Below, piece by piece: positions 1,647 to 57,972 of a stretch of 64,000 nt of DNA. Below the pieces are notes generated by a model. It ran no database searches and was not told the origin of the DNA. It saw only the letters and a list, made by a program, of their open reading frames with translations. The translations under genes and the position numbers were made by a program. This stretch comes from Candidatus Aenigmatarchaeota archaeon. Its GTDB lineage: Archaea; Aenigmatarchaeota; Aenigmatarchaeia; GW2011-AR5; JAGGXF01. The stretch lies in contig JAGGXF010000003.1 of assembly GCA_021163205.1 (NCBI GenBank), forward strand, positions 1,200 through 65,199, written 5' to 3'. Each line of letters starts with the position of its first letter. Within the stretch, counting starts at the first letter, position 1.

Positions 1647-2771
1647 TCATCTCATGATTACCTTAATCCAATTAACAAAACTTCCGTGGAACAGCAATGT
1701 TAAGATGTAGCCAAGTAAAAGAAAAATTGCGAACGGCTGTTTCTGGAAAACTAGAATCTCGTTGAAATCTATTTTTTTCTCTTTTTTCAGTTTCTTGATT
1801 TTTTCGATATCTTCTTTTGTTAGTTCACCTAAACTATGAATATATCTTTCCTTTCGTTGTTGAAGCGTTTGTATAAGACTTGTCTGGAGAAAGCTGATCT
1901 TTTCTATCTTTTTATTTCGTTTAACTATCCCCTCCGCAAGAATCATACCCTCTTTCAGTTTATTTATTTTAACACTTTTTGTATAAGAATGGTAAGCTAT
2001 ATGTAGAATAAAAAACCTGAAAACGAGAAATATAAATACACTAACAGCAAACTGATAGAGGAATGCTGCCGTGTATATATTTCTGTAGTCTATGATAATT
2101 CTAATGATTGCACACAAAACAAAAAAGGCTTCTGTTTTTGCCGTGAAAAACATACGCAAGATTTCATATGCTATGAACATTGCGAATATGGTAACGAAAA
2201 AATTAGATGGTAATTTAAAAAGTGAAAGAAAAGTCGTGAATAACCAGGCAAAACCAAGGAATATTACAGATATCAATACAATCTTGTAGGGCTCGAATGC
2301 GTACTTAAATGCTTTTTTAATTACATCTGCTCTTGCCCTCACCAGAAGAATTACAAAAATAAAGAAGAATATTGGCACGAAAGAGTTAACCAAATAGTCC
2401 ATAACCACCGATGAATGTTTATAAAGAATTGGTGGGAACAGGAGGCTCAATGCAAGAAAAAGCTTTGCATCACCAGCAGGCCACATACCCAGATGCCAGA
2501 AAAGGATTGACACCAGAAATGAAGATAAAAATACATTCACAAAAACCGCCGGCTCGATACCAAAATAAAACTGAAATAAGATAGCATATAGAAGTAATAA
2601 AGCAATATACCTGTTCCTGATAACACCTTTCTTTAGATCTTCATAGGAAATTAAAATTCCTATTAGAATAGGAAAAATAAACTCTATCACGAGAGTCCCA
2701 TCCACTTTTTCTTCAGTTGTATGCTTTCTAAGCAAGCTTTGATGAGTTCTTTGTCTCTCAATGTTTGACAC
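1647..2771 (-). CDS. A24-family prepilin/preflagellin peptidase-like polytopic membrane protein with C-terminal extension (true start probably downstream of 2771)
   Basis: Multiple TM segments. The motif WPAGDAKLF matches the GxGDxK catalytic-Asp motif of FlaK/PibD-type peptidases. The C-terminal soluble region resembles that of the second A24-like gene at 22815. Confidence 0.55.
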   Translation of the reverse strand: MSNIERQRTHQSLLRKHTTEEKVDGTLVIEFIFPILIGILISYEDLKKGVIRNRYIALLLLYAILFQFYFGIEPAVFVNVFLSSFLVSILFWHLGMWPAGDAKLFLALSLLFPPILYKHSSVVMDYLVNSFVPIFFFIFVILLVRARADVIKKAFKYAFEPYKIVLISVIFLGFAWLFTTFLSLFKLPSNFFVTIFAMFIAYEILRMFFTAKTEAFFVLCAIIRIIIDYRNIYTAAFLYQFAVSVFIFLVFRFFILHIAYHSYTKSVKINKLKEGMILAEGIVKRNKKIEKISFLQTSLIQTLQQRKERYIHSLGELTKEDIEKIKKLKKEKKIDFNEILVFQKQPFAIFLLLGYILTLLFHGSFVNWIKVIMR

Positions 2772-3121
2772 ATAGTATTGTTCAGACTTATACGAGCCAC
2801 ACAGAACGTCCTGATCTCCCAGTCGTTTATTTCATAACAGATAGAAATGTTATTAGTTATTTCTGCGACATCTCCTATGCAAAATGACTTATTGACATGC
2901 CCACACACCCGCTTACAGTCCTCCAATGTCGAATGTTCTGGAAGTGAAAAATTTTCTTCACAACTCTTGTAAATTTCATATGAAATGTTTGTTATATTAT
3001 TAATTGTGTTATTAAAATCCTTTACTTGGTTTGTAGACGACTGATTTAGAGATATAACTAGACAAAACAGAATGGCCAATACCAGTGCCATCACAACTAG
3101 TTGATATTTTGTCTTCTTCAT
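2687..3121 (-). CDS. small Cys-rich protein with N-terminal signal peptide/membrane anchor
   Basis: 144 aa with N-terminus MKKTKYQLVVMALVLAILFCLVISL (basic n-region plus hydrophobic h-region). The mature part has 8-9 Cys and many N-x-S/T sequons. Its start overlaps the stop of the upstream radical SAM gene (ATGA). Confidence 0.45.
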   Translation of the reverse strand: MKKTKYQLVVMALVLAILFCLVISLNQSSTNQVKDFNNTINNITNISYEIYKSCEENFSLPEHSTLEDCKRVCGHVNKSFCIGDVAEITNNISICYEINDWEIRTFCVARISLNNTMCQTLRDKELIKACLESIQLKKKWMGLS

Positions 3122-4038
3122 ATTCTGGTCACTTTATTTCCCAACACGGGCTTGAATTCATCCCAGCCATATTTTTGTGGATATTCTTTCCACGGACCTT
3201 CGCATATCAAATCAAACTTGCATTTTTTACAGCCTTCAAACTTGGCTTTGCCACTCTCCTTTCGCCACCTATCAAAGTCCTTGATGACAAGCTCAGCATC
3301 TCTGACCTCGCCTCTGGGCATGAATAACTCTGAACAATACTTCTCATAGCCCCGCATAAAGCAGAATGGGAAAGCTTCAACCATCATTCTCACACCACTA
3401 TTCTTCCCTATGTCCAAAGCCCTGTGTATGTAAGGTTTAACATCGCTCTTCCTAGGGACAACTTTGTCAAAATTTTTCCAGGCATTTCCAACAGGGTGAA
3501 CAAAAGCAAGTTGAAATTGGTCAACACCCAATTTTATGAGCAGTTCGGCAAGCTCTGGTAAAGATTTATAATTATATTTTGTGACAACAGAATTGGTCAT
3601 AACATACTGATCAAGCTCGACAAGATTTTTTATTCCTTGAACCGTCTGAGCAAAACTGCCTGGTGCACGCGTTTGCATTTCATGTATCTCTGCTGTTGGT
3701 CCGTGCAACGCTGGCGAGAATTCTGTTGCACCGGCTTTGATTATCTTCTCACAAAAATTCTTGTAGGAAAACATACGGCCATTTGACTGTATCTGGATAG
3801 CTTCGTAACCCAAATCCTTTGCATATTTTACTAACTCTAGAATATCCTTCCTTATAGTTGGTTCTCCACCTGTGAAAACAACTTCCGTGCATCCGTCTTC
3901 TTTGCCCTCTCTAAGATGCTTCTTCAGCGCGTCTGTTGTCTGGTCTCCCAGATGCCTCTTATGCGCCTGCGCACAAAAAATGCAGTTATTATTACAACGA
4001 AATCCTACCTTAAGGTCAAGCCTCTTTTGTAACGACAT
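3118..4038 (-). CDS. radical SAM enzyme
   Basis: 306 aa. Contains FRCNNNCIFCAQ (CxxxCxxC), a GGEPT glycine-rich SAM motif, and C-terminal Cys pairs (CKKCKFDLIC). Confidence 0.75.
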   Translation of the reverse strand: MSLQKRLDLKVGFRCNNNCIFCAQAHKRHLGDQTTDALKKHLREGKEDGCTEVVFTGGEPTIRKDILELVKYAKDLGYEAIQIQSNGRMFSYKNFCEKIIKAGATEFSPALHGPTAEIHEMQTRAPGSFAQTVQGIKNLVELDQYVMTNSVVTKYNYKSLPELAELLIKLGVDQFQLAFVHPVGNAWKNFDKVVPRKSDVKPYIHRALDIGKNSGVRMMVEAFPFCFMRGYEKYCSELFMPRGEVRDAELVIKDFDRWRKESGKAKFEGCKKCKFDLICEGPWKEYPQKYGWDEFKPVLGNKVTRI

Positions 4039-4121
4039 AAGAGAAGTTTTATCCTGAAAATATTAAAAATAGTATTTGTCCACCTAATTAAACAGTTTAA
4101 CAAACTAAACTATAAATAATT

Positions 4122-4940
4122 CTATAATATCGTAAACACGGTATAACCGATAGAGCACAAGACAAAAGAATGTTTCAGACCGCCTGTTAAAGAACCCTCA
4201 GCCATCTGTCCTATTGCCAAACCCGCGAATATACCTTGAATAACTATAAGATGCATAAAAAGTGTTTTAAAAACCTGTTGCATCTGACCCACATCTACAT
4301 CAGATTGGTATTGAAAAGCGGGCACTAAAAAATTTGAAAGACCCCACATAACACCAAGGAACACAAAGAATATGATATAGCCATTTATCATCTGTGAATA
4401 AACTCTTGATGAACGTTCCCTCCTTATGTTTTCTATTTCTTGTGCAGATTCGGCAACAGCTGTCAAAACCTCACCAATGTTTCCGCCGGAGCGATGCGTC
4501 TCATTTATCGTTTTAACAGACCTTCTTACGGTAGGGCTGTTTATCTGATTCGCAAAATTCGTCAAGACCTTCTCAAAGCTTATCCCCCAATCTATCTTTG
4601 CTATAATTTGTTTGACGTAAGGATTCAAAACACCATAATCGTTTGATTTTGTGGCCTTGACTGCCTGCGGCAATGTCATGCCAGCATTGATGTTTGCAGT
4701 AATGTCTCTTAGAAAAATAGGGAAAACTGCGTCTATCTTTTTTACCTGTAAATACTTCGCATATCTTATCCCAAGTGGAACGCCAAGAACTATCAGCGCT
4801 GATAAAAAATTCAAAGGAGCAAACCAACGAGTCCCCATAAACATGGTAAAGTTTATACTTATGAGCGAAAAGCCTATAATGAAAGCTATAACTGTCGTAT
4901 TGCTTATCTTTATGTTTTCTATTGATTTCATTATAGACAT
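4122..4940 (-). CDS. type II secretion system F-domain membrane protein (FlaJ/TadC-like, C-terminal half)
   Basis: 272 aa, polytopic. Its soluble segment (...SPTVRRSVKTINETHRSGGNIGEVLTAVAESAQEIENIRRER) is typical of the T2SS-F/FlaJ cytoplasmic domain. Confidence 0.7.
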   Translation of the reverse strand: MSIMKSIENIKISNTTVIAFIIGFSLISINFTMFMGTRWFAPLNFLSALIVLGVPLGIRYAKYLQVKKIDAVFPIFLRDITANINAGMTLPQAVKATKSNDYGVLNPYVKQIIAKIDWGISFEKVLTNFANQINSPTVRRSVKTINETHRSGGNIGEVLTAVAESAQEIENIRRERSSRVYSQMINGYIIFFVFLGVMWGLSNFLVPAFQYQSDVDVGQMQQVFKTLFMHLIVIQGIFAGLAIGQMAEGSLTGGLKHSFVLCSIGYTVFTIL

Positions 4941-4941
4941 A

Positions 4942-5895
4942 CTAGACCCTCGGTTGAGTGAAGTGTAAGAACATTATGAAAATTGTATTGAGCATTGGTA
5001 TAACTCCATACACTCCTATCTTCATAGCATCTGTTATATCCATACCCATAACTCTTCCACCTATCAAAGACATAACAGATAATATTGATATGAAAAATAA
5101 TGGTGCAGCAATCATGACAGCTGTATACAAATCGGCATACGTTGATAGCGTAGATAAGTAGTGTTCTCTTTTCAGTCTGTAGTTAAATAATGCTTCTTTC
5201 GCGGCGTTTTTCAAGTATTGCGTCAAAGAGCCTCCAGTATCTATCGTAGAAACTATACCAAAAAGAAACTGACGAAATTCATCGCTCGGCGTTCGAGACG
5301 CAACTTGCTTTATTGCAGAGGTTATATCCATACCAAATGTCTCCACGTTCCTTGTTATTACTTTGGCTTCGTTAGATATCTCTTCGTATTCTTTTATATC
5401 TCTCAAAAGCTTGAACATGACATAAGGCGGAACACCACTACTGGATATAGCAGCCATGTGATTAATGGCAAAAGGCATAACCGCCTCTATGCTGGACTTT
5501 TTAGAGCTTATCTTCTGAAAAGGATAAGAATGAAAGGTTACGAGGATGATGAGGGATGTTATGAGACTGAAAAGAAGTGAGCCTATGAGCGATGTGGTTG
5601 GCTCTATTCCAGCAACAAAAACCAGCAGAACCAGCATCCAATCAAAGATAAGAAAAAATGAGAGAAAAGTAAAAAAGAACATCTTCCCTACATACGTTTC
5701 GTAAACCATCCTCAAGTTCGATTGTTCTATTTCCTGCTTTATGGGTTTCAGGTAATTTGGAAAGTGCTTAATACCAAATCTAGCAAAAAATCGTATGGAT
5801 TTTTTATACAAGTCTTTGGCTTTTTTCCACAACGCTCTAATATTCATATCTGCCTTCATAGACAATACCATTCGAAATATTTTATAGCAACCCAA
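4942..5895 (-). CDS. type II secretion system F-domain membrane protein (FlaJ/TadB-like, N-terminal half)
   Basis: 317 aa. Carries a T2SS-F cytoplasmic domain (ITSAIKQVASRTPSDEFRQFLFGIVSTIDTGGSLTQYLKNAAKEAL) followed by TM helices. Its stop lies 1 nt before the start of the next T2SS-F gene, in a different frame. Confidence 0.7.
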   Translation of the reverse strand: MGCYKIFRMVLSMKADMNIRALWKKAKDLYKKSIRFFARFGIKHFPNYLKPIKQEIEQSNLRMVYETYVGKMFFFTFLSFFLIFDWMLVLLVFVAGIEPTTSLIGSLLFSLITSLIILVTFHSYPFQKISSKKSSIEAVMPFAINHMAAISSSGVPPYVMFKLLRDIKEYEEISNEAKVITRNVETFGMDITSAIKQVASRTPSDEFRQFLFGIVSTIDTGGSLTQYLKNAAKEALFNYRLKREHYLSTLSTYADLYTAVMIAAPLFFISILSVMSLIGGRVMGMDITDAMKIGVYGVIPMLNTIFIMFLHFTQPRV

Positions 5896-5912
5896 GATTG
5901 AGCAACACCAAA

Positions 5913-6608
5913 TTAAATTATGCTATCTGTTTCGAAAACTTTGTCGTGGTAGACAAAAAATCCCTGACTAGTTATATCGTATGGATGTAGTTTTCTCGAG
6001 TGCTCTGTTGCCCTCATTTTCAATATTGTCAGGACACGATGAAATTCCCCATTCTTCAACACCCTATGTAGTAATATGATACCATCAGTTACAAACTCTT
6101 CTATTCCGAAGCGTGAGATACCTTCTCTTATGTTTGGTATTTCTGATATCACGATCCCTGTGCACTTGTTTTTTCGAATAAGATTATTCAGTTGTTGCAT
6201 CATTATCCTTATGTCATTTTTATGACCTATATGCATACCCAAAGCAGATACAGAATCAATAACAATTCTCCTAGCATTTATCTCCTTTATGCTATTCTGA
6301 ATTATGTCCATGATATCTTCTATCCTAAATGGGTCGTATTTAACAAGCCTTAACTTATTTTCGTCTTCCATTTTTTTCAAATCCCATCCAAATGTTTCCG
6401 CAGTTTCTCGAATTTGATCAAGGCTTTCCTCGAAGCTTACAAATATCCCAGGTTCAGGAGAACTTACCAAGAAATGCAACCCAAAAATAGTCTTACCTGT
6501 ACCAGCAAAACCTGTCAGAAGAATTAAATCAGATTCCGGAACACCTTCTGGGACGAGAGCATCAAACCCCGGAATGTTGAATTTTATTCTTTTGATACTC
6601 ATCACCAA
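5913..6608 (-). CDS. KaiC/RecA-superfamily ATPase, FlaH-like
   Basis: 231 aa. Walker A LLTGFAGTGKTIFGLHF. It is the size and position of FlaH between the FlaI-like and FlaJ-like genes. Confidence 0.6.
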   Translation of the reverse strand: MVMSIKRIKFNIPGFDALVPEGVPESDLILLTGFAGTGKTIFGLHFLVSSPEPGIFVSFEESLDQIRETAETFGWDLKKMEDENKLRLVKYDPFRIEDIMDIIQNSIKEINARRIVIDSVSALGMHIGHKNDIRIMMQQLNNLIRKNKCTGIVISEIPNIREGISRFGIEEFVTDGIILLHRVLKNGEFHRVLTILKMRATEHSRKLHPYDITSQGFFVYHDKVFETDSII

Positions 6609-6675
6609 TTGTTCTAGTTATTAGATAATTAATTGTAATGAAAAGTTTTAAATCCAAATTACAGGTGTAATTGAA

Positions 6676-8400
6676 CTATTTTTCCATCATCTTGAGAACC
6701 TGCTCTGGTTTTTTCCTATATAATCTTATATATCGAACGACATCACGCCAATCAGAAAAGCTTTTGTTTCGCAGCCACTCAAGAACCTGTTTGCGTCGGG
6801 ACAGCTCTTGCTGTATTCTGCTCATTGAAATGCCCTTCTCTGTCGATATCTTGTGCAGAAGCCACGAATTTCCGTTGTACTCGTAACTATCTTCTGCCGC
6901 AACCCAAGCAAATGCCCTCGTATATTTAACCTTACCCGTGTCTTGATCAACCATACGTATTTCGTCAATTTCTTTGATACGTCTGGCGGATTTTCCTTTT
7001 TCGCGCGCATGAACAAGAATTATTACCAAGTCTAACGTTTCTATTAACCCTGGGGACAGATTTATTGGTTCTGTTTCCAACCTTTTTATGACAGCATCAA
7101 CAGAGCCAGCGTGCATAGTTGCGAGCGACGGATGGCCAGAAGCCATGCCTTGGAACATGACATATGCCTCTTTACCTCTAATTTCACCTACTATCAAATA
7201 GTCTGGGTTTTGCCTGAATGATTCCTTAAGCAAGTCAAACATCGTCACCTCGCCAGTTTCATCCCCGCCAAAACCAAGTCGCGACACGCCAGGTATCCAG
7301 TTCTCGTGGGGCAATGCCAGTTCCCTTGTATCCTCTATAGAAATGATTTTTGCCTCTTCTGGCATAAACAATGATATAGCATTTAGAAAAGATGTTTTGC
7401 CTGTTGAAACGCCACCACATATGAGAATGTTGACTCCGTTTTCAACAGCAAACCATAAATAAGCCATCATCTCAGAGGATGCTGTGCCAAGATTGATTAT
7501 ATCAACTGGTGTAAACGGCGTTTCCCTGAACTTCCTTATAGAAAATGTGGGACCTCTCGTTGTCACGTCTCCGGCAAGTGATGCTTGTACTCGCGTGCCA
7601 TCTGGGAGCGAACCATCCAGGAGCGGCTCGGCATAGCTTATATATCTATTGCATCGCTCTGCAAGCTTTATGACAAATTCTCTAAGTTCTTCTTCATTGT
7701 TGTAGACTATATTTGTTTTTATAGAACCGTACTGTCTGTGAACAACATATATTGGAATTCCTACACCATCACAACCAAGGTCTTCTATGTAAGGGTCATG
7801 TAAAAGCGGTTCTATTATGTTGAGACCAACAAAATCCCTATAAATGTAATACATAATTCTAAAGTATTCTGTTGTCGTCAAATGAAATCCATATTCATCT
7901 ATAAGCATCTGAACGTTCTTTTCCAGGTAATTCATAAGTTTTTCTTGGCTTCTCACCTCGCTCAGGTTGACATCAATCACCTGAATGAGGCCCTCCCTTA
8001 TTTTTTTCAATATTCTTTTCTGCTTCTCGCTAAGTTCCGGCTCTATGACATAATATATATACTCTTCTCGAACAGGGTCCCACATAATTCTGGCATAAGC
8101 ATACGGCTCTATCAGAGGATATCGCATAGTCTTTGGAATTTCCTTAGAAAACATTACAAACCGCTTCGGTGTCCTGAACCTGAATCTCGGATACTTGAAA
8201 TGAATATGTTCGACCTTTTTCAATTTATATTTTTTATGACCATATTCTCCAAGCTTTTTAAGCTCAAGAAGCTGCCCTGCTCGTGTAGTGCTTCTCAAAA
8301 CAGGCTTTCGATATACCCTTATAGTGTTATCTCTCTTCGTCAACTTCCTATACAAAAGTCCTCTCATAGATTTTATTTGATCTAATATGCTTTTTGTCAT
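6676..8400 (-). CDS. type II/IV secretion system ATPase, FlaI/VirB11/GspE family
   Basis: 574 aa. Walker A ICGGVSTGKTSFLNAI. Conserved secretion-ATPase core (ISIEDTRELALPHENWIP, DYLIVGEIRGKEA). Has an N-terminal domain typical of archaeal FlaI-like proteins. Confidence 0.8.
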   Translation of the reverse strand: MTKSILDQIKSMRGLLYRKLTKRDNTIRVYRKPVLRSTTRAGQLLELKKLGEYGHKKYKLKKVEHIHFKYPRFRFRTPKRFVMFSKEIPKTMRYPLIEPYAYARIMWDPVREEYIYYVIEPELSEKQKRILKKIREGLIQVIDVNLSEVRSQEKLMNYLEKNVQMLIDEYGFHLTTTEYFRIMYYIYRDFVGLNIIEPLLHDPYIEDLGCDGVGIPIYVVHRQYGSIKTNIVYNNEEELREFVIKLAERCNRYISYAEPLLDGSLPDGTRVQASLAGDVTTRGPTFSIRKFRETPFTPVDIINLGTASSEMMAYLWFAVENGVNILICGGVSTGKTSFLNAISLFMPEEAKIISIEDTRELALPHENWIPGVSRLGFGGDETGEVTMFDLLKESFRQNPDYLIVGEIRGKEAYVMFQGMASGHPSLATMHAGSVDAVIKRLETEPINLSPGLIETLDLVIILVHAREKGKSARRIKEIDEIRMVDQDTGKVKYTRAFAWVAAEDSYEYNGNSWLLHKISTEKGISMSRIQQELSRRKQVLEWLRNKSFSDWRDVVRYIRLYRKKPEQVLKMMEK

Positions 8401-14339: not shown

Positions 14340-15779
14340 TTATCCTTTCATAACAGCCAAAGGCACAAGCTTTGCAACAAGCTTTGCTATGCCCAAAGCA
14401 TCTGAAACGCGCACAACTTCGTCTATATCTTTGTAAGCTTTTGGCGCTTCCTCTGCCAAAACCTTCCACGAAGCAGAACGAACAAGTATATTCTGCTTTT
14501 CCAACTCTTCCTTAACCTTTTCACCACGCGTGGTTCTTAACATCTGTGCCCGACTAGAGACCCTGCCTGCGCCATGCGCCGTAGAGCCGAATGTAAGATT
14601 CATCGCCTCTTTTGTTCCATGAAGCACATAAGATGCAGTACCCATTGAACCGGGAATAAGAACAGGTTGTCCAACTTTTCTGTACACAGCAGGAACATCT
14701 TCATGTCCTGGTGGAAAACTTCGTGTCGCACCTTTTCTGTGAACATAAACTTTTCTTGTTTCACCGTCTATTTTATGCTTCTCAACTTTGCCAATGTTGT
14801 GACAAACATCATAAACAATATGCATACCTAGGTCTTCTGCGCTCTGGCCAATTACTTTTTGGAAAGCCTCGCGTGTCCAGTGGGTTATTAATTGACGATT
14901 GCACCATGCAAAGTTGGCAGCACATTTCATAGCTTCATAGTACTCTGCACAGGTGTCTGTTCCGGCCGGAGCATAAATGAGCTCTCGGTCCGGAAGCTTA
15001 GAAACGATGTCATTAAATTTATTTTCCATCTCCCTCAGATAATCTGTACAAACTTGATGACCAAATCCCCGAGAACCGGTATGAATCATAATACAGACTT
15101 GACCTTTTTCAAGACCAAAAACCTTAGCAACATCCTCGTTAAATATGTCTTTTATAAGTTGTATCTCCACAAAATGATTTCCTGCACCTGTTGTTCCTAT
15201 TTGCTCTTTACCGCGCTTAAGAGCCTTGTCAGAAACAGTGTCTGTATCAGCAAGCATGCTTCCATTCTCTTCTAGAAACTTCGGGTCTTCCTTCCAAGCA
15301 TATCCTTGTTCGACGGCCCACTTAACGCCTTTAGCAAGCGGCTCTAAAAGTTCTGACTTGCTCAATCGCAGCTTACCTGCCCGCCCAACCCCAGACGGTA
15401 TGTTTTTGAAAATCGTGTCCAGAAGCTCTTTGAGGTGTGGCTTAATATCGCTAAGCGTAAGGTTTGTGCGAATAATTCGAACGCCACAATTGATATCAAA
15501 ACCTATACCTCCGGGCGAAAGCCCACCTTTTTCATAATCAAGAGCAGCAACACCACCTATTGGAAAACCATATCCCTGATGACAGTCAGGTAATGCTATT
15601 GAATACTTATATATTCCAGGCAACGCAGCAACATTTTTAGTCTGCTCTATTGTGTTGTCCCCCTTTATTTTTTCAATAAGCTTTTCAGATGCAAAAATCC
15701 GACCAGGAACATTCATTTGACCTTCCTTCGGTATCTCCCAGACCATATCATTTATCTTTTTCAATTCCATAACCACCAC
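14340..15779 (-). CDS. rtcB: RNA-splicing ligase RtcB
   Basis: 479 aa. Motifs GIGFDINCGVR, HTGSRGFGHQV and NHAGAGR-like. Full-length with no intein. Confidence 0.9.
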   Translation of the reverse strand: MVVMELKKINDMVWEIPKEGQMNVPGRIFASEKLIEKIKGDNTIEQTKNVAALPGIYKYSIALPDCHQGYGFPIGGVAALDYEKGGLSPGGIGFDINCGVRIIRTNLTLSDIKPHLKELLDTIFKNIPSGVGRAGKLRLSKSELLEPLAKGVKWAVEQGYAWKEDPKFLEENGSMLADTDTVSDKALKRGKEQIGTTGAGNHFVEIQLIKDIFNEDVAKVFGLEKGQVCIMIHTGSRGFGHQVCTDYLREMENKFNDIVSKLPDRELIYAPAGTDTCAEYYEAMKCAANFAWCNRQLITHWTREAFQKVIGQSAEDLGMHIVYDVCHNIGKVEKHKIDGETRKVYVHRKGATRSFPPGHEDVPAVYRKVGQPVLIPGSMGTASYVLHGTKEAMNLTFGSTAHGAGRVSSRAQMLRTTRGEKVKEELEKQNILVRSASWKVLAEEAPKAYKDIDEVVRVSDALGIAKLVAKLVPLAVMKG

Positions 15780-15796: not shown

Positions 15797-16237
15797 CTAT
15801 GTGTCGACTATAACTTGAACTCTATATCCACCGTCTGTTTTTTTTATCTCCATCTTATGATACGTTATTGCTTTGACCTCTCCACGTATCTCGTGCCTAG
15901 CTAAATCTTCTCCACGTGCAACAGCATCCAAAAGCCATTTACTATCGGCACGAGTTATAGTTACAACAAATTCACCAAAAACAACATGCTCCGTGTCAAA
16001 TATGAATAAAATCTCTGACAACCAGTCATAGAGCAGTGCCTTATCGTCTCGAGCTTCTACATGAATTTTTCTTTCCATCTTTTTATTTATCTTCGATGTA
16101 TCTGTTATTATTTCTGTCATCGCCAACGCTGCATTAGCAAAAGCCTGTTCCAATGTATTGCCAAAAGCCGCAAAAGCACGATCTGCTGTCGCGATGTCAA
16201 GAAACTCATATCTTTTCTCCATTTTATCATACCACAA
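15797..16237 (-). CDS. archease (RtcB activator)
   Basis: 146 aa. MEKRYEFLDIATADRAFAAFGNTLEQAFANAALAM is the archease N-terminal motif. Located immediately upstream of rtcB. Confidence 0.8.
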   Translation of the reverse strand: MWYDKMEKRYEFLDIATADRAFAAFGNTLEQAFANAALAMTEIITDTSKINKKMERKIHVEARDDKALLYDWLSEILFIFDTEHVVFGEFVVTITRADSKWLLDAVARGEDLARHEIRGEVKAITYHKMEIKKTDGGYRVQVIVDT

Positions 16238-19632: not shown

Positions 19633-19726
19633 GGGTCTGTAGTCTAGCTAATGCGCAAGCATCTAGAATGGTCTAGGATCGGGCCTTCGGGAGGCTCAGA
19701 CAGGAGTTCAAATCTCCTCAGACCCA
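19633..19726 (+). tRNA. tRNA-Pro(CGG) with putative 20-nt non-canonical intron in the D-loop (19649-19668)
   Basis: Acceptor GGGTCTG/CAGACCC. T-arm AGGAG-TTCAAAT-CTCCT. Anticodon stem-loop GGGCC-TTCGGGA-GGCTC (anticodon CGG, U33, G37). The D-region is 20 nt too long: AGC[TAATGCGCAAGCATCTAGAA]TGGTCTA. Confidence 0.7.
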
Positions 19727-20841: not shown

Positions 20842-21615
20842 TCAGCCATTTTCTTTTTTTATCGGTATCTTTTTACTTACTTTTCTCGCAAACGTCAAAA
20901 ATCCCGTGTGTCCGAGCATGCGTGTCTTTGGCCGTGAAAAGTAGTCAGATTGCCACTCTCTCTCAATTACCTCTTTGGTTGTTATGTGCGCAAATCCGAC
21001 CGTTTGCATGACTTTTCTTGCACTAATAACTTGTTCTATGTAGGGTGAGTAGACAACCAACCAGCCGCCGGGCTTGAGCGCCTTGAACATCTTTTCTATG
21101 TATTGATCAACATTTCTAATATCCAATGTAATAAGATCAAGGCCCTTCTCATTCATCTTCTCTACTGGTTTGTTTTTTATCTTAACTATCTTTTCAAGAC
21201 CGCATTTTTTCACGTTCTGCTTGGCAACCTCTGCAAACTTTTTATTACTTTCATAGCTAACAACTTTGCCTCGTGGGCCGACAACATTACCTATCATCAG
21301 GGCAAGAAATGCAGAACCAGCACCAGCATCTACGCACTTCCATCCCGGTCGTATGCCTACATGAGCAACTATAGCAGCAGCGTCCTTTGCCGTGACAACC
21401 TGCGGCATCCTCTTCAGCTTTTTCATCATGTCTGATAGTGTTGGTTTAACTACCAAAAACAAAACGCCCTTATGCGTTCGAATGCTCTGCCCATATTTTT
21501 TGATCTTAGTTAGATTTATTACACCGAACTCTGTATGTAACTTGCCGTGCGACTTCTGAACAAGATAAGTGCGCTTCTCACTTAGGAGCAAAACAAAATC
21601 GTCTTTTCTAAGCAT
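20842..21615 (-). CDS. trmI: tRNA (adenine57/58-N1)-methyltransferase TrmI
   Basis: 257 aa. N-terminal MLRKDDFVLLLSEKRTYLV...HTEFGVI. SAM-binding motif VDAGAGSAFLAL. Confidence 0.8.
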   Translation of the reverse strand: MLRKDDFVLLLSEKRTYLVQKSHGKLHTEFGVINLTKIKKYGQSIRTHKGVLFLVVKPTLSDMMKKLKRMPQVVTAKDAAAIVAHVGIRPGWKCVDAGAGSAFLALMIGNVVGPRGKVVSYESNKKFAEVAKQNVKKCGLEKIVKIKNKPVEKMNEKGLDLITLDIRNVDQYIEKMFKALKPGGWLVVYSPYIEQVISARKVMQTVGFAHITTKEVIEREWQSDYFSRPKTRMLGHTGFLTFARKVSKKIPIKKENG

Positions 21616-30942: not shown

Positions 30943-31908
30943 CTATTTTCTATTTTTCGGGTATATTCCAGGCTCCATTATAACTCTGTCTGTACGGACA
31001 ATGATTCCCCCCATAGGAACTTTTGATTTTTTTATATCTTTCCAGTCAACATTTGAAATTCCCAGAGCAACCAATTCTCCCTTACCTGTTATCATAGCAA
31101 CAAGACCATCTTTTTTTATACTATCTTCAAATTTACAAATACCTCCAATGTAAAGCGGTGAACCGTTGCAAATAGAAAAAACGGCAGAGTCTTTTATTAT
31201 CAACTTCGGTATGTGCTCGACAGCAGCCTCAACAGGCAACAAGATTTGTCTGAGTTTTTGCTCAGCACTGCCCACACCATTCTTGTAGAATTCAAATGTA
31301 TCTTTGAGCTCCTGAAAGGTGTGTGCTTGCTCTTCCTTGTATGGTCCGACTTCCGTGCGACGCAACTCTACCATGTGTGCGCCTCCTATCTTCTCACCGA
31401 TCTGATGAACAAGCTTTCTTATGTAAGTTCCTGCCTCACAGCGAATGTCCAGCACAGCATTTCTTCCAACTATGTCAACGACCTCTAAAGAATATATTTC
31501 CCTTTTGCGTTTCACGCGCCTGACGGCAGACCTGACGGGAGGCTTCTGAGTTATTTTACCAACAAATTGCCTACAAATCTCTTTAAGTTTTTCCCCATCG
31601 ATGTCCTTATGCAGGCGCATAACAGTCACATACCTCTTGCTCAGACCCTGGAGCGCAGGCATCACTCGTGTTGCTCTATCAAGGACGATTGGCAAAACGC
31701 CTGTGGCGCGGGGATCTAAGGTTCCGGAATGTCCGGCCTTGTCAACACCCAAAATCTTTTTGACCCACGAAACACATTCGCGAGATGTCGGACCAGGAGG
31801 CTTGTCCAGAACAAGCAACCCATTGTGAATGAGCTCTTCTATGGAACGAATACCCGGGTATCTCCCATAATCAGGGCTGGATATTTCATCACACAATGTT
31901 ATCCACAT
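30943..31908 (-). CDS. cbf5: tRNA/rRNA pseudouridine synthase Cbf5 (TruB family, with PUA domain)
   Basis: 321 aa. Contains GHSGTLDPRATGVLPIVLDRATR (catalytic Asp motif). Has a C-terminal PUA-like region. Confidence 0.85.
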   Translation of the reverse strand: MWITLCDEISSPDYGRYPGIRSIEELIHNGLLVLDKPPGPTSRECVSWVKKILGVDKAGHSGTLDPRATGVLPIVLDRATRVMPALQGLSKRYVTVMRLHKDIDGEKLKEICRQFVGKITQKPPVRSAVRRVKRKREIYSLEVVDIVGRNAVLDIRCEAGTYIRKLVHQIGEKIGGAHMVELRRTEVGPYKEEQAHTFQELKDTFEFYKNGVGSAEQKLRQILLPVEAAVEHIPKLIIKDSAVFSICNGSPLYIGGICKFEDSIKKDGLVAMITGKGELVALGISNVDWKDIKKSKVPMGGIIVRTDRVIMEPGIYPKNRK

Positions 31909-37372: not shown

Positions 37373-37702
37373 CTATCCAACAAGTTCTTTGATTATTTTT
37401 TGACTTCCGCCGGGTTCTGCTATTGCAACAGCAGCACAGGAAACTTCAATGCCGGCAGCTCTTCCAAGCTCGCTTTTGCTTGGCACCTCCACGAGCGGTA
37501 TGTTTTTTTCTTCGCAAAGAGGTTTCAGATGCATAACTATTTCTGGTGGGTCAACATCCTTAGCAACAGCGACTAGCTTTGCTATGCCGCGTTCAACTGA
37601 CTTGGTAACTTCGTTTATACCCTTACGTATTTTTCCTGTTTCTCTTGCTATCTCAATAGCTTCCAAAGTTTTTTCAACTTTTTCATCTGCCATTTTTTCC
37701 AC
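37373..37702 (-). CDS. rpl7ae: 50S ribosomal protein L7Ae (K-turn binding; also C/D and H/ACA RNP component)
   Basis: [59 protein letters not shown]. Likely start MADEK at 37693. Confidence 0.85.
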
Positions 37703-41047: not shown

Positions 41048-41195
41048 GCTGGGGTAGCCAAGTCAGGTCCAAGGCGCCAGCTTGGAGTTTAAAACAGAAA
41101 GCTGGTGAGCTTCGGCTCGCGTGGGTTCAAACCACCCCCTACGAGTTCGTCACTTAGTCGTAGACGGAGGGGGTGTGAAAATCCCATCCCCAGCG
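41048..41195 (+). tRNA. tRNA-Ser(GGA), class II, 148 nt, with two putative introns (anticodon loop ~12 nt; T-loop ~51 nt)
   Basis: Acceptor GCTGGGG/CCCCAGC plus G73. D-arm GCC-AAGTCAGGTCCAA-GGC. Anticodon stem CCAGC/GCTGG with loop TTGGA(G) interrupted by TTTAAAACAGAA. Variable arm TGAGCTTCGGCTCG. The T-arm 5' half GTGGGTTCAAA is separated from its 3' half TCCCAT by ~51 nt. That insert includes a CACCCCC/GGGGGTG helix. The intron-free tRNA at 57476 has the same T-arm uninterrupted. Confidence 0.6.
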
Positions 41196-50393: not shown

Positions 50394-51113
50394 TTGTTGG
50401 TGAAGAAGATGAAAAAAGTGATAAAGTACATATTTTTTGATCTGGACAACACACTCGTAGATTTTATGGGGATTAAAAAGATGTGTTGCTCTGCTGCTGT
50501 AGATGCAATGATAAAAGAAGGATTAGAGATGAGCAAAAAGGACGCAATGAAGATACTTTTCGAATTATACGAAAACTATGGAATAGAGTATGATAAGATA
50601 TTTCAGAAGTTTCTTATAAGGGTTATGAAGAAGATAGACTATAAGATACTTGCGAGAGCTGTATATGAATATAGAAGGGTTCAGTTGAGACACCTGAAAC
50701 CATATCCCGGTGTTGTTCACCTTATGAAGAAATTGAAGCAAGAAGGCTACAAACTTAGCATAGTTTCTGATGCACCGAGTATGAAGGTATGGCTCAGGTT
50801 GTTTGAAACGGGTCTGGCAGAATATTTTGATTTTGTCGTTGCTTTTGATGAAACGCGACAGAAGAAGCCAAGCCGGGGTGTTTTCAGATTGGCAGTCAAA
50901 AAAGCCGGATGCAAACCACATGAAATATTATTTGTCGGGGATGACCCGATGCGGGATGTTAACGGTGCAAAGGCTGTTGGAATAAAAACAGTTTTTGCAT
51001 TATATGGCCTGGTGCCAAAGTATAAAAAGTATGTAAAGAGTATCAGTCCTGACTATGTGATAAGACGCCCAAGTGAGTTGCTCGATGTTCTTAAGCGCAT
51101 CAATGGGGGTTAG
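50394..51113 (+). CDS. HAD-superfamily hydrolase
   Basis: Motif I IFFDLDNTLVDF. Motif IV LFVGDDPMRDVNGAKAVG. Confidence 0.7.
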   Translation: MLVKKMKKVIKYIFFDLDNTLVDFMGIKKMCCSAAVDAMIKEGLEMSKKDAMKILFELYENYGIEYDKIFQKFLIRVMKKIDYKILARAVYEYRRVQLRHLKPYPGVVHLMKKLKQEGYKLSIVSDAPSMKVWLRLFETGLAEYFDFVVAFDETRQKKPSRGVFRLAVKKAGCKPHEILFVGDDPMRDVNGAKAVGIKTVFALYGLVPKYKKYVKSISPDYVIRRPSELLDVLKRINGG

Positions 51114-51114
51114 G

Positions 51115-52188
51115 ATGATAAAGACCATCAAAGAGGGTTCTGCTCGATTATATGTGCCAAATGTGAACAAGCCTGAGCAGGGGCGGAGAGAAGGATTTTA
51201 TAATCCAGCCATGACTAAAAACAGAGACATATCTGTCGCGTGTCTTGCTGTTCTATTCAAAGTTTCCAAGAAGAGAGCAAAAAATAGGATGAGAATTTGT
51301 GATGCGCTGACTGCTACAGGCGTTCGGGCAATTCGGTACAAGAAAGAAGTTGGTGGTGAGGTTTGGGCGTGTGATGTCAATGAGAACGCGATTAAGCTTG
51401 CCCGAAAAAATGCATACTTAAACAAAACCAAAATAAATTTTGTTAATAAAGATGCAAATGCCTTTCTAAGTGAAAACGGGTTTGATTTTGTTGATATAGA
51501 CCCCTACGGGTCCCCCGTTGGATTTATTGCGGCAGCGGGGCATTCACTTGGTAGGAAAGGTTATTTAGCAGTAACAGCAACAGATACCGCGGCGCTTAAT
51601 GGCGTCTATCCCCGTGTTGCTGAGCGAAGATACGGAATACGTTCTGTCAGATGCTTCTATTCAAAAGAGCTTGGCACGAGAATTCTAATAACATCTATTA
51701 TTCGAATACTCATGCAACAAGACAAGGCTTTTCAGCCTCTTCTGTGTTTTCAGGATAGACATTATATAAGAATATTCGGCTCTGTCTTGAGGGGTGCTAA
51801 AAAGTGTGATGTATTGCTTGACAAAATGAAGTATATAGTTGCCGACAAGGATAGTTGGGAAATAAGAGAGCACCCCAGTGAGAAATCCATTGGTCCTATC
51901 TACATCGACACGATACAAAAAAAGAATTTTTGTATGTCTGTCCTAAAAGAGCTCAAAAAACGAAATCTCACAGGACAAAACATAGTCAGACTTGCTGCAG
52001 AAGAGCTCCAAGAACCATTTTACTATGACACGCATTTTTTATCCAAAAAATACAAAAAGCCACTAGTCAGCCTGTCTAAAATTATTGATACTCTCTCCAA
52101 AAGGCATAAAGTTAGCAGAACAGTGTTTTGCCCTACCGCCATAAAAACAGATGCTGGGCTTGAGAAAATATTAGCTGCGATGGAATAA
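51115..52188 (+). CDS. trm1: tRNA (guanine26-N2)-dimethyltransferase Trm1
   Basis: MIKTIKEGSARLYVP...FYNPAMTKNRDISV...ICDALTATGVRAIRY...VDIDPYGSP are Trm1 signature blocks. Confidence 0.8.
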   Translation: MIKTIKEGSARLYVPNVNKPEQGRREGFYNPAMTKNRDISVACLAVLFKVSKKRAKNRMRICDALTATGVRAIRYKKEVGGEVWACDVNENAIKLARKNAYLNKTKINFVNKDANAFLSENGFDFVDIDPYGSPVGFIAAAGHSLGRKGYLAVTATDTAALNGVYPRVAERRYGIRSVRCFYSKELGTRILITSIIRILMQQDKAFQPLLCFQDRHYIRIFGSVLRGAKKCDVLLDKMKYIVADKDSWEIREHPSEKSIGPIYIDTIQKKNFCMSVLKELKKRNLTGQNIVRLAAEELQEPFYYDTHFLSKKYKKPLVSLSKIIDTLSKRHKVSRTVFCPTAIKTDAGLEKILAAME

Positions 52189-56630: not shown

Positions 56631-57425
56631 ATGAATATGAAAATCTTGGAGAAGAGTCCAAAGTTTGTGAAATTCGTTTTGGAAAAAACTACCCCAGCGT
56701 TTGCAAACGCCTTAAGAGAGATTATGGTAGCAGAAATACCAACTATGGCTATTGAATATGTAGACATAGAAAAAAATACAACAGGTTTATTTGATGAGCT
56801 TCTTGCTCATCGCCTGGGGTTAATACCACTAACCTTCGACTCAAGGCTTTTCAACCTCAAGGAAGAATGTAAATGTGGTGGTAAAGGATGCAGTAGATGC
56901 GAAGTCATATTAACTCTTGAAAAAAAAGGACCATGCAAAGTATATTCTGGTGACCTGAAAAGCAATGAGGACAGCGTAAAACCAACAAACCCAAACATAC
57001 CAGTAGTTGAGTTGCTTGAAGGCAGAGAACTCAAACTACAAGCTGTTGCATCACTCGGAATAGGAAAAAACCACGCAAAGCATCAGGCAGCTGTGGTGGG
57101 CTATCAATATTTGCCACACATAAGAATAGATAAAGATAAGTGCAATAATTGTGGTGTGTGTGTGGAGAAATGCCCGAAAAAAATTTTACAGAAAAAAGAT
57201 GGAAAGGTTTGCATAGTCAACAGCATGGAATGTTCACTCTGCATGTACTGCGTTGATAATTGTGAGAAAAGAGCGATAGCCGTAAGCGGAGATGAAAAAA
57301 ACATTTTATTCCGCGTTGAAACAGTCTCTGGTTTGACAGCACCAGAAATCATAAAACAAGCTTTTAATGTGCTAAACAAAAAATTATCGATTTTCAAAGA
57401 TGGGCTCGAAAAGGCAGTCAAATGA
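56631..57425 (+). CDS. rpoD: DNA-directed RNA polymerase subunit D (Rpo3) with 4Fe-4S ferredoxin-like insert
   Basis: 264 aa. Dimerisation domain. CNNCGVCVEKCP and CSLCMYCVDNC cysteine clusters (domain 3 of archaeal Rpo3). Confidence 0.8.
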   Translation: MNMKILEKSPKFVKFVLEKTTPAFANALREIMVAEIPTMAIEYVDIEKNTTGLFDELLAHRLGLIPLTFDSRLFNLKEECKCGGKGCSRCEVILTLEKKGPCKVYSGDLKSNEDSVKPTNPNIPVVELLEGRELKLQAVASLGIGKNHAKHQAAVVGYQYLPHIRIDKDKCNNCGVCVEKCPKKILQKKDGKVCIVNSMECSLCMYCVDNCEKRAIAVSGDEKNILFRVETVSGLTAPEIIKQAFNVLNKKLSIFKDGLEKAVK

Positions 57426-57475
57426 ACCCTCTGGGCGAATCTTTTAATAACGAAATGAAATAATACTGATATAAC

Positions 57476-57620
57476 GCTGGGGTACCCAAGTCATGGTCTT
57501 TTTGACCACTTGAATGGCCAAAGGGGCAGGTTCATTTGACTCCTGACCAAAGGTCAAATGATGTCATACTTAAGATCCTGTGACTTAGTGTCTGCGTGGG
57601 TTCAAATCCCATCCCCAGCA
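57476..57620 (+). tRNA. class II tRNA (probably tRNA-Leu, anticodon likely CAG) with putative 20-nt D-loop intron (57499-57518) and ~38-nt anticodon-loop intron
   Basis: Acceptor GCTGGGG/CCCCAGC plus A73. Intact T-arm GTGGG-TTCAAAT-CCCAT. D-arm CCC-AAGTCATGGTC[TTTTTGACCACTTGAATGGC]CAAA-GGG is collinear with the tRNA-Ser D-arm once the insert is removed. Anticodon stem GCAGG/CCTGT encloses ~45 nt (TTC...AGAT). Long variable arm GACTTAGTGTCTGC. Isotype assignment is uncertain. Confidence 0.55.
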
Positions 57621-57630
57621 TTGTATCAAT

Positions 57631-57972
57631 ATGGGCGATTTGATGAAAAAAACAGACAAAACCTTGATTGAACTTGTAAAGAAGTTGAAAAAACGCAAAG
57701 AGGGGTTTTACCAAGCATTGGCTAGATATCTATCGGCAGCGAGAAGAAAACGCACCGCTGTAAATATCGCGAAGATAGACAAAATTGGAAAAGAGGGGGA
57801 ATTGATTGTCGTTCCAGGAAAAGTTCTTGGGAACGGAATATTAACAAAAAATATCTCCGTATGTGCATATTCATTCAGTAAGTCTGCTGAGAAAAAAATA
57901 AAAGAAAGGGGAAATATCGTGTCTTGGGATGAGCTCATTGAGAAAAATATGCGAGGAAGAATCATTATATAG
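57631..57972 (+). CDS. rpl18e: 50S ribosomal protein L18e
   Basis: KTDKTLIELVKKLKK...YQALARYLSAARRKRTAVNIAKIDKIGKEGELIVVPGKVLGNG matches L18e. Confidence 0.8.
   Translation: MGDLMKKTDKTLIELVKKLKKRKEGFYQALARYLSAARRKRTAVNIAKIDKIGKEGELIVVPGKVLGNGILTKNISVCAYSFSKSAEKKIKERGNIVSWDELIEKNMRGRIII

Follow-up and report, generated by a model that had tools for sequence, protein, structure and literature searches.

In the 64-kb stretch of Candidatus Aenigmatarchaeota (DPANN) DNA analysed here (the window), the 145-nt class II tRNA gene at 57476..57620 (+) is, with a probability of about 93%, a tRNA-Leu(UAA) gene with two bulge-helix-bulge (BHB) introns, which splicing would remove from the D loop (between nucleotides 17 and 17a) and from the 5′ strand of the anticodon stem (between nucleotides 30 and 31). 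The assignment and the junctions are supported by three independent lines of evidence, since the scan for BHB motifs, the alignment to the intron-less orthologue L046 and the anticodon arms of the orthologues agree. The gene had originally been predicted to be Leu-like and class II, with two introns, located in the D loop and on the anticodon side. The long variable arm and the tRNA-Leu call for the spliced product bear out the former, and the BHB scan and the L046 alignment the latter. The splice sites and the anticodon given in that prediction are wrong; the corrected splice sites provide the right anticodon for annotation.

The predicted spliced RNA is 86 nt long and reads GCTGGGG-TA-CCC-AAGTCTGGCCAAA-GGG-G-CAGGA-CTTAAGA-TCCTG-T-(variable arm)-GTGGG-TTCAAAT-CCCAT-CCCCAGC-A. 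It is called tRNA-Leu(taa) by ARAGORN with default settings. Its anticodon stem is CAGGA/UCCUG with G26·U44, and its D stem, CCC/GGG, has 3 bp. The features of a class II archaeal tRNA-Leu are thus all found in it: a long variable arm, a 3-bp D stem, a large D loop, a Leu anticodon and A73, which is an identity element.

Table 1. Coordinates of the tRNA-Leu(UAA) gene, its predicted parts and other features of the window
Feature	Position	Strand	Description
Type IV pilus/archaellum-like assembly cluster	1647-8400	-	Archaeal prepilin peptidase C-terminal domains, two T2SSF membrane proteins, KaiC-like ATPase, T2SSE/PilB-like ATPase
Large ORF, 831 aa	9077-11572	+	No or sub-threshold Pfam match (ATG17-like, DUF948, for the two large ORFs)
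RtcB, 3′-P RNA ligase	14340..15779	-	Pfam PF01139, E=2e-171; expected to join exons
Archease, RtcB cofactor	15797..16237	-	Pfam PF01951, E=5e-43
tRNA-Pro(CGG)	19633-19726	+	19-nt D-loop intron, 19650-19668, site 17/17a; junction restores AGCT|TGG
GCD14/TrmI-like m1A methyltransferase	20842-21615	-	tRNA/rRNA maturation
Large ORF, 685 aa	25544-27601	-	As for the 831-aa ORF
Cbf5 (TruB+PUA)	30943-31908	-	tRNA/rRNA maturation
L7Ae	37373-37702	-	tRNA/rRNA maturation
tRNA-Ser(GGA)	41048-41195	+	Two introns: 12 nt, 41088-41099, at 37/38; 50 nt, 41132-41181, T loop, at 59/60
Parts shared by tRNA-Ser and tRNA-Leu	41048-41056 / 41119-41195 vs 57476-57484 / 57596-57620		Acceptor stem, U8-A9, T arm
Trm1	51073-52188	+	tRNA/rRNA maturation
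rpoD (RNAP subunit D)	56631..57425	+	Upstream neighbour; Pfam; anchors the syntenic locus for orthologue recovery
Complete tRNA-Leu(UAA) gene	57476..57620	+	G1 to discriminator A73; CCA not encoded
Exon 1	57476..57492	+	nt 1-17: acceptor 5′ strand, U8 A9, D-stem 5′ strand CCC, D loop AAGUC; from BHB scan and alignment to L046
Intron 1	57493..57514	+	22 nt, ATGGTCTTTTTGACCACTTGAA; D loop, between nt 17 and 17a; strict BHB
BHB of intron 1	h 57485-86/57516-17, H 57487-90/57509-12, bulges 57491-93 and 57513-15, h′ 57494-98/57504-08	+	2+4+5
Exon 2	57515..57530	+	nt 17a-30: rest of D loop UGGCCAAA, D-stem 3′ strand GGG, G26, anticodon-stem nt 27-30 CAGG
Intron 2	57531..57567	+	37 nt, TTCATTTGACTCCTGACCAAAGGTCAAATGATGTCAT; 5′ strand of anticodon stem, between nt 30 and 31; strict BHB
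BHB of intron 2	h 57522-24/57569-71, H 57525-28/57562-65, bulges 57529-31 and 57566-68, h′ 57532-41/57552-61	+	3+4+10
Exon 3	57568..57620	+	nt 31-73: A31, loop CUUAAGA, 3′ stem UCCUG, U44, long variable arm, T arm, acceptor 3′ strand, A73
Anticodon TAA	57571..57573	+	UAA, reads UUA/UUG Leu codons; from spliced cloverleaf and orthologue anticodon arms
Ribosomal protein L18e gene	57631..57972	+	Downstream neighbour; Pfam; begins 10 nt past tRNA-Leu

Locus, gene ends and behaviour of tRNA finders

The 5′ end of the gene, read from the sequence, is GCTGGGG-TA and the 3′ end GTGGG-TTCAAAT-CCCAT-CCCCAGC-A. These ends contain a perfect 7-bp acceptor stem (GCTGGGG/CCCCAGC), U8, a canonical T arm (GTGGG-TTCAAAT-CCCAT) and discriminator A. 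The variable arm, GAC-TTAGT-GTC, is long and has a 3-bp stem, and the gene is therefore class II. A strict scan of both strands of the window, which demanded a 5-bp T stem with G53-C61, a T loop NTCRANN, 7/7 acceptor pairs and U8, returned only two matches, this gene and the tRNA-Pro gene. The gene is therefore real and has exactly these ends, in agreement with the original prediction, and a chance match is ruled out.

The gene sits within the conserved archaeal cluster S13-S4-S11-RpoD-[tRNA]-L18e-L13-S9. The RpoD protein of the window matches, with 100% identity, an NCBI protein that is assigned to a Candidatus Aenigmatarchaeota archaeon, and its closest relatives belong to the same phylum. 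The three exons are contiguous and in order within the 145 nt, which is not the arrangement of a split or permuted tRNA gene. At the very start of the L18e ORF (TGATGA...; 57636-57698, +), Rfam gave weak C/D-box snoRNA-like matches (E about 1, far under the gathering scores), which are most likely due to chance.

Standard tRNA finders perform poorly on this gene. ARAGORN in its default and intron (-i) modes reported no tRNA anywhere in the window, and the Rfam tRNA model gave no match at the gene in a search of 57400-57700 at E<=10. At -ps80, ARAGORN placed a tRNA at exactly these coordinates but modelled it wrongly as Ile(GAT), and this call was one of 61 that were mostly spurious. In an exhaustive deletion test, every deletion of at least 21 nt in the D region passed, and many anticodon-side deletions were accepted with assorted isotypes. 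Because ARAGORN accepts such a wide range of deletions, it cannot fix the intron boundaries. Its failure with the D-intron boundaries 57499-57518 was likewise set aside as evidence against them, as it reflects only a limit on D-loop length. The only tRNA-Leu(UAA) seen at this conserved locus would thus be missed or misassigned with default ARAGORN and the Rfam tRNA model, and such omissions inflate the apparent count of "missing tRNAs" in DPANN MAGs.

Placement of the two introns

The orthologues were taken from the syntenic region downstream of rpoD in genomes and metagenomes, in order of decreasing RpoD identity. RpoD scans of genome and metagenome collections for close relatives provided three useful loci, and most comparator loci came from look-ups in a protein database and of contigs. 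The tRNA-Leu gene is identical in L020 (RpoD 100%). Both introns are present in L001 and L021 (RpoD 74%) and in L045, whose tRNA gene is identical to theirs. L044 and L043 (the latter partial; RpoD 59-60%) are without the D-loop insertion and keep the 30/31 intron, in which two h′ pairs are changed on both sides. The gene of L046 (RpoD 56%) is intron-less, with 86 nt. L047 (52%) has three introns, located at the same D-loop site (junction CCCAAGTC|TGG), at 37/38 and at 59/60, L048 (52%) has two D-loop introns and one at 37/38, L049 (53%) has one D-loop intron and one at 37/38, and L050 (51%) and L002 (47%) have the 37/38 intron only. Six genomes (L002, L046, L047, L048, L049 and L050) have no interruption in the 5′ strand of the anticodon stem, and in all of them the arm reads CAGGA-CTTAAGA-TCCTG.

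In a structure-blind global alignment to L046, the two insertions of the window gene follow positions 17 and 33 of the reference, with a shift of 0 relative to the BHB sites. The spliced product of the window is identical to L046 at 75 of 86 positions with zero indels, and comparison with the other spliced orthologues within the phylum (75/86 to 85/86 identities) showed no indel either. Default ARAGORN calls all of the spliced orthologues tRNA-Leu(taa). The differences between L001 and the window are all located in the tops and loops of the intron hairpins, except for one T-loop base.

Substrates of archaeal EndA have an established geometry of a 3-nt bulge, a 4-bp helix and a 3-nt bulge. The strict BHB scanner accordingly looked for a 4-bp central helix (H) with 3-nt bulges on opposite strands, extended the outer helix h and the inner helix h′, and placed the cleavage between bulge nucleotides 2 and 3. 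As positive controls, it recovered the canonical 37/38 junction GCAGGACTTAAG|ATCCTG in L050, L002, L048 and L049, which validates its register. Both introns of the window gene have two 3-nt bulges around a 4-bp helix in the exact 3-4-3 geometry, and this is conserved across orthologues.

The intron 2 junction (57530|57568) is the top strict BHB of the gene, with a score of 17 (3+4+10) against 11 for the next candidates; a score of 17 was reached by 0/400 shuffles of the 145-mer and by 6/400 random genomic 145-mers. The same junction is found in L001 and L044. In a four-sequence alignment, 98.4% of the cells of the intron 2 BHB structure are paired, compared with 28-47% for slid partners, and two h′ pairs are changed on both sides (C-G to U-A and G-C to U-A). 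The covariation score was reached by 10/500 shuffles, a figure that comes from a tiny sample of four sequences.

The intron 1 junction (57492|57515) is also a strict BHB (2+4+5, with a weak 2-bp h and a 5-bp h′), but its score of 11 was equalled or exceeded in 130/400 shuffles of the 145-mer. Intron 1 therefore rests on comparative evidence and not on its own statistics. The junction CCCAAGTC|TGG was also recovered in L001 and L047, and the stem TGGTC/GACCA of the window is replaced by TGGTTC/GAACCA in L001 in a compensatory manner. The D-loop insertion is absent from L044, L043, L046, L050 and L002, where the D loop is AAGTCTGGTCAAA or a close variant (AAGTCTGGTCAAA itself in L044 and AAGTTTGGTCAAA in L043). 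For the two introns taken together, h′ is kept by compensatory changes in L001, L044, L043 and L047.

The D-loop intron had previously been placed at 57499-57518. These boundaries have no BHB and would leave a 15-nt D loop, AAGTCATGGTCCAAA, that is found in no orthologue. The misplacement arose from a near-repeat, CATGGTC / AATGGCC, the first copy of which is the h′ stem of the intron. A hand-drawn D splice at 18|39 was also rejected, since it lacks an outer helix and leaves a 15-nt D loop. The original prediction had further named an alternative fold with another isotype and a canonical intron only, or a failure to find any BHB motif, as what would speak against it. BHBs are indeed present in the gene, but at sites other than those it proposed.

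Alternative readings and the proposed splicing pathway

It had been proposed that the gene encodes tRNA-Leu(CAG), with the D intron at 57499-57518, an anticodon stem GCAGG/CCTGT (GCAGG/CCUGU in the RNA) around the loop TTCAGAT, and an intron inside the anticodon at 34/35 or 35/36. ARAGORN accepts a CAG product given a suitable D-loop deletion, but the program is very permissive. CUG accounts for 15.5% of the window's Leu codons, which means that the genome must have a CAG tRNA somewhere. UUA and UUG together account for 32%. The codon usage of the window fails to discriminate the anticodon UAA from CAG. The junctions needed for a CAG product are not in the strict BHB list, their central helices have only 2/4 or 3/4 pairs and no flanking helices, and no nucleotide 26 remains in the product. 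The syntenic orthologues all have CAGGA-CTTAAGA-TCCTG with the anticodon TAA, intron-less D loops are 13 nt long (AAGTCTGGTCAAA) and not 15 nt, and mapping by alignment alone leads to different boundaries. The orthologue sequences already refute the CAG assignment, and we give it practically no chance.

The failure of the standard finders could also be taken to mean that the gene is a decayed pseudogene, in which the two insertions are junk that is never removed. Against this, the exons are perfectly conserved or co-varying across genomes whose RpoD identity is 52-74%, whereas the intron interiors diverge, and the BHB helices are maintained by the compensatory changes described above. The locus is a conserved syntenic tRNA-Leu(UAA) locus in the rpoD-L18e operon, and the window, in which UUA and UUG codons are frequent, holds no other tRNA-Leu. 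A pseudogene is thus very improbable. Processing by a route other than EndA and BHB cleavage, such as self-splicing, retention of an expanded D loop or processing dictated by an intron-encoded guide RNA, would be compatible with the fact that no tRNA_int_endo (EndA) domain was found in about 60 ORFs of the window. The ATGATG and CTGA strings of intron 2 also loosely resemble C and D boxes, but they are not conserved in L001 or L044, and a C/D-box guide RNA in intron 2 was rejected. With 22 and 37 nt, the insertions fall far below the size of group I or II introns (core at least 200 nt) and gave no Rfam intron matches, and the exact 3-4-3 geometry of both, conserved across orthologues, leaves such a route with hardly any likelihood.

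The pathway that we propose for the tRNA-Leu(UAA) with two BHB introns starts from a primary transcript in a conformer whose D stem and anticodon stem would not yet be formed. For intron 1, nucleotides 10-15 would form h with G18-G19 of exon 2 and H with the 3′ part of the intron. For intron 2, nucleotides 22-28 would form h with nucleotides 32-34 of the anticodon loop and H with the 3′ end of the intron. The result would be two separate motifs of the type helix, 3-nt bulge, 4-bp helix, 3-nt bulge, helix. The borrowing of stem strands for BHB helices is usual for non-canonical introns. Both motifs can be present together because they use non-overlapping segments (local nt 10-42 and 47-96). The centroid fold of the pre-tRNA contains H, a bulge and h′ of intron 1 and h′ of intron 2, and the conformer with both BHBs lies about 6 kcal/mol above the MFE (−45.4 versus −51.4 kcal/mol, non-cloverleaf).

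EndA would then cut between the second and third nucleotides of each bulge and release introns of 22 and 37 nt, and RtcB with archease would presumably ligate the three exons. The 86-nt product is predicted to fold into a class II cloverleaf with UAA, G26, A73 and a 3-bp stem in the variable arm. RtcB and archease had already been recognized in the window by the original prediction, and their Pfam matches are strong (Table 1). The window also encodes other proteins of tRNA and rRNA maturation, namely a GCD14/TrmI-like m1A methyltransferase, Cbf5, L7Ae and Trm1. Trm1 belongs to the m2,2G26 methyltransferase family, and all three tRNAs of the window have a purine at position 26.

Introns at the orthologous locus, in the other tRNAs of the window and in other archaea

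Based on the orthologues, the number of introns at the tRNA-Leu(UAA) locus of Aenigmatarchaeota varies from 0 to 3. About six positions are used, namely 30/31, 37/38, 59/60 and two or three sites in the D loop, one of which is 17/17a. In the window itself, all three tRNAs, Pro(CGG), Ser(GGA) and Leu, are interrupted and yield a cloverleaf once spliced, and no intron-less tRNA is detectable in the 64 kb. The earlier statement that every tRNA here contains introns is therefore confirmed, and its suggestion that the lineage makes heavy use of non-canonical tRNA introns agrees with these three of three tRNAs and with the intron numbers of the Leu orthologues. The syntenic locus is a natural 0-3 intron series for the gain, loss and movement of introns and for the supporting type of EndA.

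It is possible, although we put it slightly short of an even chance, that Aenigmatarchaeota are a second major hotspot, after Thermoproteales, of the proliferation and turnover of tRNA introns. This tentative reading is based on the intron states among genomes with RpoD 50-75% identical and on related introns that suggest transposition. If it is true, the lineage must have an EndA of broad specificity, and the architecture or loop type of this enzyme might be one that has yet to be characterised. In L048 (2310-2536), L049 (2531-2719) and L047 (2029-2240), four introns share a layout of a hairpin followed by AATCAAAA. They are D-loop intron 1 of L048 and the 37/38 introns of L048, L049 and L047, and thus include two different positions in one gene. 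Duplication or transposition in Aenigmatarchaeota could have produced them, but their sequences are A/T-rich and any kinship is tentative. Within the 64-kb window, no similarity between introns and no extra intron copies were found. In L046, rpoD and tRNA-Leu are separated by an inserted toxin-antitoxin pair of the HepT/MNT (nucleotidyltransferase) type (2035-2820), and the intron-less tRNA-Leu lies about 1 kb downstream.

The occurrence of multiple and of non-canonical BHB introns is well established, above all for Thermoproteales, and 30/31 and 59/60 are explicitly among the positions listed (PMC4090602, PMC4033280). The Thermoproteales tRNAs with multiple introns (Sugahara et al. 2007/2008; Fujishima et al. 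2010, reviewed in PMC4033280 and PMC4090602) resemble the Leu gene in having short BHB introns outside 37/38, up to three per gene. In both, a transplantable BHB defines the splice sites, the cloverleaf is restored, and the introns vary fast between related genomes. However, the host here is a mesophile-like DPANN archaeon with 38% G+C and not a hyperthermophilic crenarchaeon, and the EndA of Thermoproteales is an (αβ)2 enzyme with a CSL loop, whereas no EndA was found in the window. The D-loop site 17/17a is not among the positions given in the review text consulted here.

Many non-canonical or multiple introns missed by standard predictors, as in the present case, are also a feature of other DPANN archaea, which include Nanoarchaeum with split tRNAs, ARMAN/Micrarchaeota with an ε2 EndA, and Pace-/Woesearchaeota with an α4 EndA with an L3 loop (PMC3239211, PMC5829648). 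The Leu gene differs in being contiguous and cis-spliced, in contrast to split or permuted genes. Raised disruption of tRNA genes in DPANN with loop-bearing EndAs has been described, and undetected disrupted tRNAs were anticipated (PMC5829648); Aenigmarchaeota were outside the genome set of that analysis. Our literature search found no paper on tRNA introns in Aenigmatarchaeota.

Compared with the canonical 37/38 intron of L050 and L002, the introns of the Leu gene have the same hBHBh′ geometry and presumably use the same EndA and RtcB/archease. The motif of intron 2, by contrast, lies 7 nt further 5′ and is built from nucleotides of the D-stem 3′ strand, G26 and the anticodon stem instead of those of the anticodon loop, so the body of the cloverleaf must unfold for it to form. 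The intron positions of the tRNA-Leu(UAA) gene are unusual but of kinds already known, and no new mechanism is revealed. With this gene, Aenigmatarchaeota join the lineages in which tRNA splicing relies on BHB motifs independent of position. A modest further point is that introns turn over at a single orthologous locus within the phylum.

The other two tRNAs of the window give clean cloverleaves after splicing. The tRNA-Pro intron lies at the same 17/17a site as intron 1 of the Leu gene, and the two sequences are unrelated apart from a 3′ end in ...GAA. In tRNA-Ser, the 12-nt intron at 37/38 has only a relaxed BHB (H 3/4, no h′), which suggests an EndA of broad specificity, and the 50-nt T-loop intron at 59/60 has a strict BHB (5+4+8) and a hairpin, CCACCCCC...GGAGGGGGTG, that is rich in G/C. 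tRNA-Ser and tRNA-Leu are identical in the acceptor stem, U8-A9 and T arm (GCTGGGGTA ... GTGGGTTCAAATCCCATCCCCAGC), and they differ in the discriminator (G in tRNA-Ser, A in tRNA-Leu), D stem, anticodon arm and variable arm.
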